Positions 1-261 of a stretch of 261 bases of DNA are shown piece after piece. Under the pieces are notes generated by a model. That model was not told the origin of the DNA. It searched no databases and saw nothing but the letters and a program-made list of their open reading frames with translations. The DNA lies in sequence record X00774.1; one strand, 5' to 3'. The translations under genes and the position numbers were made by a program. The stretch is from a phage. How positions within the stretch are numbered: position 1 is the first letter of the stretch; every line of letters begins with the position of its first letter.

Positions 1-114
1 AACGCCGCTGAGCCTTTGCGTTACACCCTGCGTATTAAAGCAGGATTCAAAGAAACTGTAATGGATGCCGAGGAAAATGCTCGTCAGAAATTACGCGCAA
101 ATGGACTGAAGTGA
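1..114 (+). CDS. D: External scaffolding protein D, C-terminal portion (5'-partial; ORF enters from upstream of the window)
   Basis: Frame 1 is open from position 1 to TGA at 112-114 and translates to NAAEPLRYTLRIKAGFKETVMDAEENARQKLRANGLK*. From memory, the phiX174 protein D C-terminus is ...FTLRVRAGNTDVLTDAEENVRQKLRAEGVM*, which aligns closely (TLR-x-x-AG, DAEEN-x-RQKLRA). The position immediately upstream of J matches Bullavirinae gene order. Confidence 0.9.
   Translation, partial: NAAEPLRYTLRIKAGFKETVMDAEENARQKLRANGLK
2..61 (+). CDS. E: Lysis protein E, C-terminal portion (5'-partial), encoded in the +1 frame inside gene D
   Basis: Frame 2 is open from position 2 to TAA at 59-61 and translates to TPLSLCVTPCVLKQDSKKL*. 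In phiX174-like phages E lies in the +1 frame relative to D, as here. The P-L...PCV motif resembles my recollection of the phiX174 E C-terminal region (...PLNCSRLPCVYAQ...). The start codon is outside the window, and the E C-terminus is poorly conserved, so identity rests on frame, position and weak similarity. Confidence 0.55.
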   Translation, partial: TPLSLCVTPCVLKQDSKKL

Positions 115-115
115 T

Positions 116-190
116 ATGAAGAAAGCACGTCGTTCTCCTAGTCGTCGTAAAGGTGCTCGCCTCTGGTATGTAGGCGGTTCTCAGTTTTAA
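116..190 (+). CDS. J: Small basic DNA-binding/packaging protein J (complete, 24 aa, short alpha3-type)
   Basis: ATG at 116-118 to TAA at 188-190 translates to MKKARRSPSRRKGARLWYVGGSQF*. The C-terminal GARLWYVGG-QF matches the phiX174 J C-terminus (...KGARLWYVGGQQF). Eight of 24 residues are Lys/Arg and none are acidic. The gene sits between D and F as in all Bullavirinae. Its length matches the short alpha3/G4-type J (24-25 aa) rather than the 38-aa phiX174 J. Confidence 0.93.
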   Translation: MKKARRSPSRRKGARLWYVGGSQF

Positions 191-194
191 TTAT

Positions 195-210
195 GGCTTC
201 GGGGCCTTTT
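195..210 (+). terminator. J–F intergenic hairpin (GGC-UUCG-GGGCC) followed by a TTTT run; putative weak intrinsic terminator or mRNA-stabilising stem-loop
   Basis: GGCTTCGGGGCC (195-206) can pair G195-C206, G196-C205, C197-G204, or alternatively close a C(UUCG)G tetraloop at 197-202. TTTT follows at 207-210. It is positionally equivalent to the phiX174 post-J hairpin GGGGCTTCGGCCCC, which is a known inefficient terminator. The stem here is only about 3 bp, so function is uncertain. Confidence 0.45.
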
Positions 211-222: not shown

Positions 223-261
223 ATGTCTAATGTACAAACTTCCGCTGAACGTGAAATTGTT
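223..261 (+). CDS. F: Major capsid protein F, N-terminal 13 codons (3'-partial; ORF continues past the window)
   Basis: ATG at 223-225, then the frame is open to the window end and translates to MSNVQTSAEREIV. The phiX174 F N-terminus is MSNIQTGAER..., and the nucleotide start ATGTCTAAT is shared. A Shine-Dalgarno precedes it and it lies directly after J, as expected. Confidence 0.9.
   Translation, partial: MSNVQTSAEREIV

Follow-up and report, generated by a model that had tools for sequence, protein, structure and literature searches.

An early stop in the E reading frame of a phage alpha3 segment is probably the conserved end of the lysis gene in the alpha3 subclade

The lysis protein E spans the membrane once and blocks MraY; its cytoplasmic part is bound by the host chaperone SlyD. 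Work by Maratea in 1985 and by Buckley and Hayashi in 1986 is said to have placed its lytic activity in the N-terminal membrane segment. Structures have been solved for the E proteins of ID21 (76 aa; PDB 8G01) and phiX174 (PDB 8G02), presumably in the same MraY-E-SlyD study, and we take the SlyD-binding helix of 8G02 to lie in the cytoplasmic part of E. The lytic activity of E maps to the N-terminal membrane segment (PMC5405515). Entry 8G02 is described as E bound to SlyD, with a positively charged E helix in the SlyD chaperone domain (PMC11198818), the studies of Maratea (1985) and Buckley & Hayashi (1986) are named in the reference lists (PMC11198818; PMC8227390), and lysis-curve experiments on four E genes included that of alpha3 (PMC11126076). 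Records X60322 and NC_001330 of phage alpha3 already contain the 75-aa E; the latter annotates E at 2675-2902 and D at 2503-2955, the two ends being 53 nt apart.

The DNA analysed here, referred to as the window, is a stretch of 261 nt (X00774.1). Over its full length, the window was 97.7% identical to positions 2842-3105 of alpha3 NC_001330, and its identities to St-1 and phiK over the same 261 nt were 94.3% and 92.1%, respectively. The window matched alpha3 base for base save at 14-21 and for a 3-nt deletion, and positions 22-196 had the same bases in three independent alpha3 records. By nucleotide identity, the window is thus assigned to phage alpha3 (Microviridae, Bullavirinae, Alphatrevirus), and gene order together with nucleotide identity fits an Alphatrevirus segment comprising D, the nested E, J, a hairpin spacer and F. 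Its features are as follows.

1-114, plus strand: 3' end of gene D (external scaffolding protein), frame 1, last 37 codons and TGA at 112-114
2-61, plus strand: 3' end of the nested lysis gene E, frame 2 (+1 relative to D), last 19 codons at 2-58 and TAA at 59-61
14-21, plus strand: six clustered changes that set the window apart from alpha3 and every relative (CCTTTGCGT versus CTCTTCGCG), with length kept
62-109, plus strand: E-frame tail past the stop, 15 sense codons and TGA at 107-109, in DNA that codes for D only
116-190, plus strand: gene J (DNA-binding core protein), 24 aa and stop, in agreement with the alpha3 annotation
195-210, plus strand: what is left of the GC-rich UUCG hairpin between J and F, with TTTT after it and 3 nt (GCC) missing from the 5' arm
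223-261, plus strand: start of gene F (major capsid protein), ATG at 223-225 and first 13 codons in frame 1 (MSNVQTSAEREIV), in agreement with the alpha3 annotation

The end of D in alpha3 NC_001330 is the base homologous to the end of D in the window. The D fragment matched the Pfam gpD profile weakly (profile positions 115-141 of 141), and J matched Microvir_J with 54.6 bits (cut-off 30). The minus strand of the window held no open reading frame of at least 20 aa, an Rfam scan of the window returned only a chance-level miRNA match (E = 0.4), and consensus scans for promoters and terminators found nothing in the window or in alpha3.

Frame 2 of the window is open over 2-58, where it reads TPLSLCVTPCVLKQDSKKL, and then meets TAA at 59-61. 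The annotated E genes of alpha3, St-1 and phiK each have 228 nt (75 codons and stop), and their last base corresponds to position 61. Both the frame-2 translation and these annotations thus confirm the proposal of an earlier note on this DNA that the E frame ends at 59-61. The E start and the transmembrane domain lie upstream of the window, and the assignment to E rests on near-identity to alpha3, the 19-aa fragment being identical to residues 57-75 of alpha3 E at 16 of 19 positions. The distance of 51 nt to the D stop given in that note was approximately right, the D-only stretch at 62-111 being 50 nt long and E and D ending 53 nt apart. TAA at 59-61 was present in all seven alpha3-subclade sequences compared, namely alpha3, St-1, phiK, Lilleven and three metagenome-derived alpha3-like genomes. 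Since this stop coincides with the annotated E stop and is kept in seven of seven sequences, it is not a chance feature. Sequence comparison makes it highly probable that TAA 59-61 is the genuine, conserved E stop of the alpha3/St-1/phiK subclade, that E has 75 residues there and that the frame beyond is a by-product of D. Alpha3 E is already annotated as ending at this stop, and the description of the early stop is correct and not new.

The alpha3-type TAA takes its first two bases from positions 2 and 3 of a D Val codon, GTA, and its last from the start of the D codon that follows (ATG or ATT). In the window, the codon after GTA is that for Met (ATG), and the E stop rests on the D-silent third base of GTA. 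In the Lilleven record (MK629527.1), E and J both lack annotation. At the expected place (L004 534-761) lies an intact open reading frame for a 75-aa E, which carries the TAA and ends in ...DSKKP*, and the J-homologous region (L004 816-890) is conserved in the alignment.

Across the Bullavirinae, the length of E and the place of its stop were distributed as follows.

alpha3, St-1, phiK and Lilleven subclade: E of 75 aa, stop at window position 59-61 (TAA)
ID62, NC28, ID21, ID32, NC35, NC29, WA45, NC3 and WA13 (nine of nine): E of 76 aa, stop one codon later (TGA or TAA)
phiX174-like phages: E of 91 aa, stop 5 nt before the D end
Gequatrovirus branch L036-L038: E of about 91 aa, stop 5 nt before the canonical D end
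G4 and ID52: E of 96-103 aa, running past the -5 site and beyond the D end

In phiX174, E occupies 568-843 and D 390-848, and the E stop site corresponds to TGA 107-109 of the window. As stated in the earlier note, the phiX174 E frame nearly reaches the end of D, stopping 5 nt before it, and its 91-aa product ends in ...KKTCVKNYVRKE (...KNYVRKE). A long E of this type, open to 5 nt before the D end, is not found in the window, where the in-frame TAA intervenes, and the inference that E here is C-terminally shorter than in phiX174 holds (75 versus 91 aa). In the proposed comparison with the E ends of relatives, the alpha3 subclade ends at 59-61, the WA13/ID21 type ends one codon later, and phiX174 ends at 107-109.

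Three further observations concern E ends and E records. In L037 and L038 (Gequatrovirus-like, IMG/VR), the usual D stop at about 650-659 is replaced by GAT, making D two residues longer (...GVMDV*), and the E stop keeps its canonical -5 position. E has 96 aa in the G4 reference and 103 aa in G4_WWN and ID52. In L039 (379-399; IMG/VR UViG_2534682327_000003, a 5883-nt phiX174 contig), codon 7 of E is TAG for TGG (MVRWTL*), which we take to be where the classical am3 amber allele of the Sanger-sequenced laboratory phiX174 lies. This 'uncultivated viral genome' is probably phiX174 from a laboratory stock or a sequencing control, with terminal redundancy in its assembly.

The earlier note had also claimed that 2-58 is dual-coding and limits the codon choice of D. 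Nei-Gojobori synonymous differences (pS) were calculated in D for 15 distinct Alphatrevirus genomes, giving 0.318 upstream of E, 0.201 within the E overlap and 0.449 over the 15 codons past the E stop. The tail/overlap ratio was 2.24 (codon-bootstrap 95% CI 1.34-3.7), the tail did not differ from the region before E (ratio 1.4, CI 0.87-2.2), and the ratio of the tail to the window's own codons at 1-57 was 1.94 (CI 0.99-4.5). Of the codons with an invariant amino acid and a degenerate code, the overlap held 67, 40 of them fully invariant, and the rest of D held 51, 16 of them fully invariant (Fisher p = 0.003); when the overlap was compared with the tail alone, the test gave p = 0.056, with low power for the 15 codons of the tail. 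In a sliding window, pS was 0 over the E transmembrane core (D codons 66-85), dipped again under E residues about 45-69 and was 0.46-0.50 beyond the stop. These values support constraint on 2-58 by two frames and its release in 62-111, and bear out the claim together with the comparison of synonymous sites suggested for it. The silent sites of D become about twice as free once E has ended, a textbook signal of dual coding. In a Gequatrovirus control of six sequences, in which E covers the tail, the tail/overlap ratio of pS was 1.31 (CI 0.75-1.95) and the tail did not differ from the region before E. Given this control, part of the synonymous rise near the D end could be unrelated to E; alternatively, constraint on the E tail may be weak throughout.

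The C-terminal region of E had been called largely dispensable, a description that fits residues 75-91 of phiX174 E and fails for residues 35-74. Pfam family PF04517 (Microvir_lysis, 'Microvirus lysis protein (E), C terminus'), a 40-position model, matches residues 35-74 in both alpha3 E and phiX174 E, so that the conserved family core ends where the Alphatrevirus E ends. It scored 86.1 bits on alpha3 E (75 aa) and 67.1 bits on ID21 E (cut-off 25), and D synonymous change was somewhat depressed under this part of E. The E frame of the window is nested in D in the +1 frame, as in the alpha3, St-1 and phiK records of the family. The N-terminal transmembrane helix with the conserved Pro21 (LLLPSLL) lies upstream of the window; alpha3 E has it (MERWTLLDILAFLLLLSLLLPSLLIMFIPS...). 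Alpha3-like phages have nothing that corresponds to residues 75-91 of phiX174 E, which amounts to a natural deletion experiment.

Past TAA 59-61, the E frame of the window reads WMPRKMLVRNYAQMD and ends at TGA 107-109, where phiX174 E also stops, 5 nt short of the D end. To assess this tail, the corresponding end of D (MDAEENARQKLRANGLK) was recoded 20,000 times with random synonymous codons, and the +1 frame was translated. The observed tail was identical to the phiX174 E tail (LTQKKTCVKNYVRKE) at 4 of 15 positions, and recoded tails at 4.0 +/- 1.5 on average (P = 0.6); the BLOSUM score of the tail against the phiX174 E tail was likewise not significant in the 20,000 recodings (P about 0.14-0.16). 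Positions 62-106 were free of stops in 78-95% of recodings. The -5 stop is set in Alphatrevirus only by the A or G ending of the penultimate Val or Leu codon of D, and it is lost in ID21 and NC29, in which the D codon is GTT and the E frame reads TTA. Since the recodings match both the observed identity and the open frame, no explanation is needed beyond the conservation of D, in line with the earlier suggestion that the overlapping D codons force the resemblance. By these comparisons, the open +1 frame, the faint likeness to phiX174 and the second stop are by-products of D conservation and shared DNA descent, and none of them is evidence of a functional or recently functional extension of E.

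Whether the tail is a vestige in the strict sense is a separate matter. On this reading, the ancestor of the Bullavirinae had an E of about 91 aa ending 5 nt before the D end, Alphatrevirus truncated it by a D-silent TGA (phiX174-type CTT to CTG), and 62-109 is a decaying former coding region. The -5 stop is used by the phiX174-like phages and by Gequatrovirus L036-L038, with G4 and ID52 reading through it, and is still found in most Alphatrevirus genomes, though there the choice of the D Val/Leu codon explains it and ID21 and NC29 have lost it. A single T-to-G change separates TTC TTA in phiX174 from TTC TGA in WA13, and it is silent in D. The three genera can be rooted in three ways, two of which favour a long ancestor. 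However, D-protein identities were 83% between G4 and phiX174, 74-75% between G4 and Alphatrevirus and 77-79% between phiX174 and Alphatrevirus; because phiX174 and G4 are the closest pair, the midpoint root sets Alphatrevirus apart. These identities suggest a root between Alphatrevirus and phiX174 plus G4, and on it truncation and extension are equally parsimonious. Published single-protein trees of the Bullavirinae disagree with one another and have low support (PMC12935840). Furthermore, the similarity of the tail is no higher than D constraint gives, and the divergent phage Mimer has only a 57-aa hydrophobic +1 open reading frame, ending 188 nt before the D end, the homology of which to E is uncertain. 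The term 'vestigial' in the earlier note presupposed a long ancestral E and is overstated; a vestige of a long ancestor in the strict sense has a probability a little short of even.

Pectobacterium phage Mimer was considered as an outgroup for rooting and set aside, its +1 frame starting and ending elsewhere and its homology to E being uncertain. Its 57-aa, strongly hydrophobic open reading frame inside gpD (ON872163, L055, 1804-1977, minus strand) has no annotation in the record and probably corresponds to the 'putative gpE' of the paper; relative to D, its start is about 80 nt upstream of that of E. A second +1-frame open reading frame of 37 aa (1633-1746) follows it. A weak D-like match was also seen in L054 (IMGVR_UViG_3300047318_000315, a 36.7-kb contig) at 201-365, with 36% identity to phiX174 D residues 5-58 and an E value of 1e-4 calculated relative to the candidates only. 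The contig is far too large for a microvirus, and the match may be due to chance or to a domain relative.

Within Alphatrevirus, the two subclades have their E stops in adjacent codons and use different stop codons (TAA at 59-61 and TGA or TAA at 62-64), and each stop is fixed in all genomes of its subclade. The WA13-type stop consists of bases 2 and 3 of a D Leu codon (CTG, TTG or TTA) and the A of the next codon. At 59-61, the WA13 type shares a TTN sense codon with phiX174 and G4, which makes it probable that the 76-aa form (TTY TGA at 59-64) preceded the 75-aa form within Alphatrevirus. If it did, the stop of the window at 59-61 would be a derived, one-codon upstream shift in the alpha3 subclade. 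The stops are built from bases that are silent or nearly silent in D, and the length of E can therefore change at almost no cost to D. Selection might hold the Alphatrevirus E at about 75 residues, the stop having 'hopped' without a return to 91 residues, a proposal that we regard as speculative and rather unlikely. If true, the tail length of E would be an adaptive trait and not a product of neutral drift, tuning, for example, the timing of lysis or the dependence on SlyD.

Low-level read-through of TAA, yielding a 91-residue E that ends at TGA 107-109 and contributes to the timing of lysis, has as its sole support the 15 open codons past the stop and a second stop at the phiX174 position. 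As described above, most synonymous recodings also keep these 15 codons open. The synonymous diversity of D in the tail is at least as high as in the D-only region upstream of E, the +1-frame residues of the tail vary freely between subclades (WMPRKMLVRNYAQMD versus ALKRMLVRNFVQVE), and the second stop is absent from ID21 and NC29. TAA is also the least leaky stop codon in E. coli. We accordingly consider a functional extension by read-through very improbable and rejected it.

The record does carry two anomalies. At 14-21, the window has CCTTTGCGT, whereas alpha3 and all other Alphatrevirus compared have CTCTT(C/T)GCG; D thereby reads EPLRY in place of the ELFA[YF] of 19 reference Bullavirinae genomes and seven IMG/VR loci, and E reads SLCV in place of SSSR. 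Exact-pattern scans for the 14-21 variant found none in IMG/VR viral contigs or JGI metagenome contigs, and these scans thus gave no independent support for a natural variant, a possibility that was set aside. At the J-F hairpin, the alpha3 sequence minus GCC equals the window. This hairpin (alpha3 L001 895-913), with its GC stem, UUCG loop and TTTT, is kept across Alphatrevirus, and the stem changes in St-1 are compensatory. Its fold has a predicted energy of -4.7 kcal/mol in the window versus -12.2, -12.3 and -10.4 kcal/mol in alpha3, St-1 and phiK, respectively. The terminator scan called the hairpin neither in the window nor in alpha3, only 4 T following the stem. Both anomalous spots are GC-rich, and the 14-21 cluster and the loss of GCC are probably gel-reading or band-compression errors of the old record, the weakened hairpin being of a kind that band compression in gel sequencing typically produces. 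The presence of GAGCTCTTCGCGTAC and GGGCCCTTCGGGGCC in the source of the record at 10-25 and 190-215 would mark the differences as reading errors. The record should thus be used with a warning about its quality, as one of two probable sequencing errors lies inside the reported E feature. Neither anomaly affects the stop at 59-61, and although a record with two probable errors might be thought to hold a third, the notion that the early stop is another sequencing error has next to no probability and is refuted by the identity of 22-196 to three independent alpha3 records and by the presence of the same TAA in St-1, phiK, Lilleven and three metagenomic genomes.

Considering these results, we return to TAA 59-61 as the conserved end of E in the alpha3 subclade with the following arrangement. 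E is read in the +1 frame within the scaffolding gene D, its stop being formed by the last two bases of the D codon GTA and the first base of ATG, and changes silent or nearly silent in D can shorten or lengthen E. Past the TAA, the DNA codes for D alone. Within Alphatrevirus, an E of 76 aa probably came first, followed by a stop one codon upstream in the alpha3 subclade. The earlier interpretation is partly supported: it appears largely right, and it was overstated in the words 'vestigial' and 'C-terminus dispensable'. The practical weight of the finding is small, the 75-aa E of alpha3 having already been recorded and the structure of a 76-aa Alphatrevirus E having been solved.

Among the known E systems, those of alpha3 (NP_039595, 75 aa; NC_001330 2675-2902), St-1 and phiK are closest to the window, with which they share the frame, the stop codon, the stop base and the last 11 residues, PCVLKQDSKKL. 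The window differs from alpha3 E in reading TPLSLCVT versus TPLSSSRT, a form found in no other genome and arising from the six clustered substitutions at 14-21. The 76-aa E of WA13, ID21, ID62 and NC28 is likewise short, ends about 50 nt before the D end and shares the core ...SSSRTPCVL(K/R)xDSKK; its stop, however, lies at the equivalent of 62-64 after Phe, and D reads V-L-S/N there versus V-M/I-D in the alpha3 type. The E proteins of phiX174 and Gequatrovirus (91-103 aa) are also encoded in the +1 frame of D from a start 281 nt before the D end, as is alpha3 E, with an almost identical N-terminal transmembrane segment and conserved residues 35-74 (PF04517). In contrast to alpha3 E, phiX174 E continues for 16 further residues to a stop equivalent to 107-109 of the window, and the E frames of G4 and ID52 continue past the D end, that of ID52 running into J.
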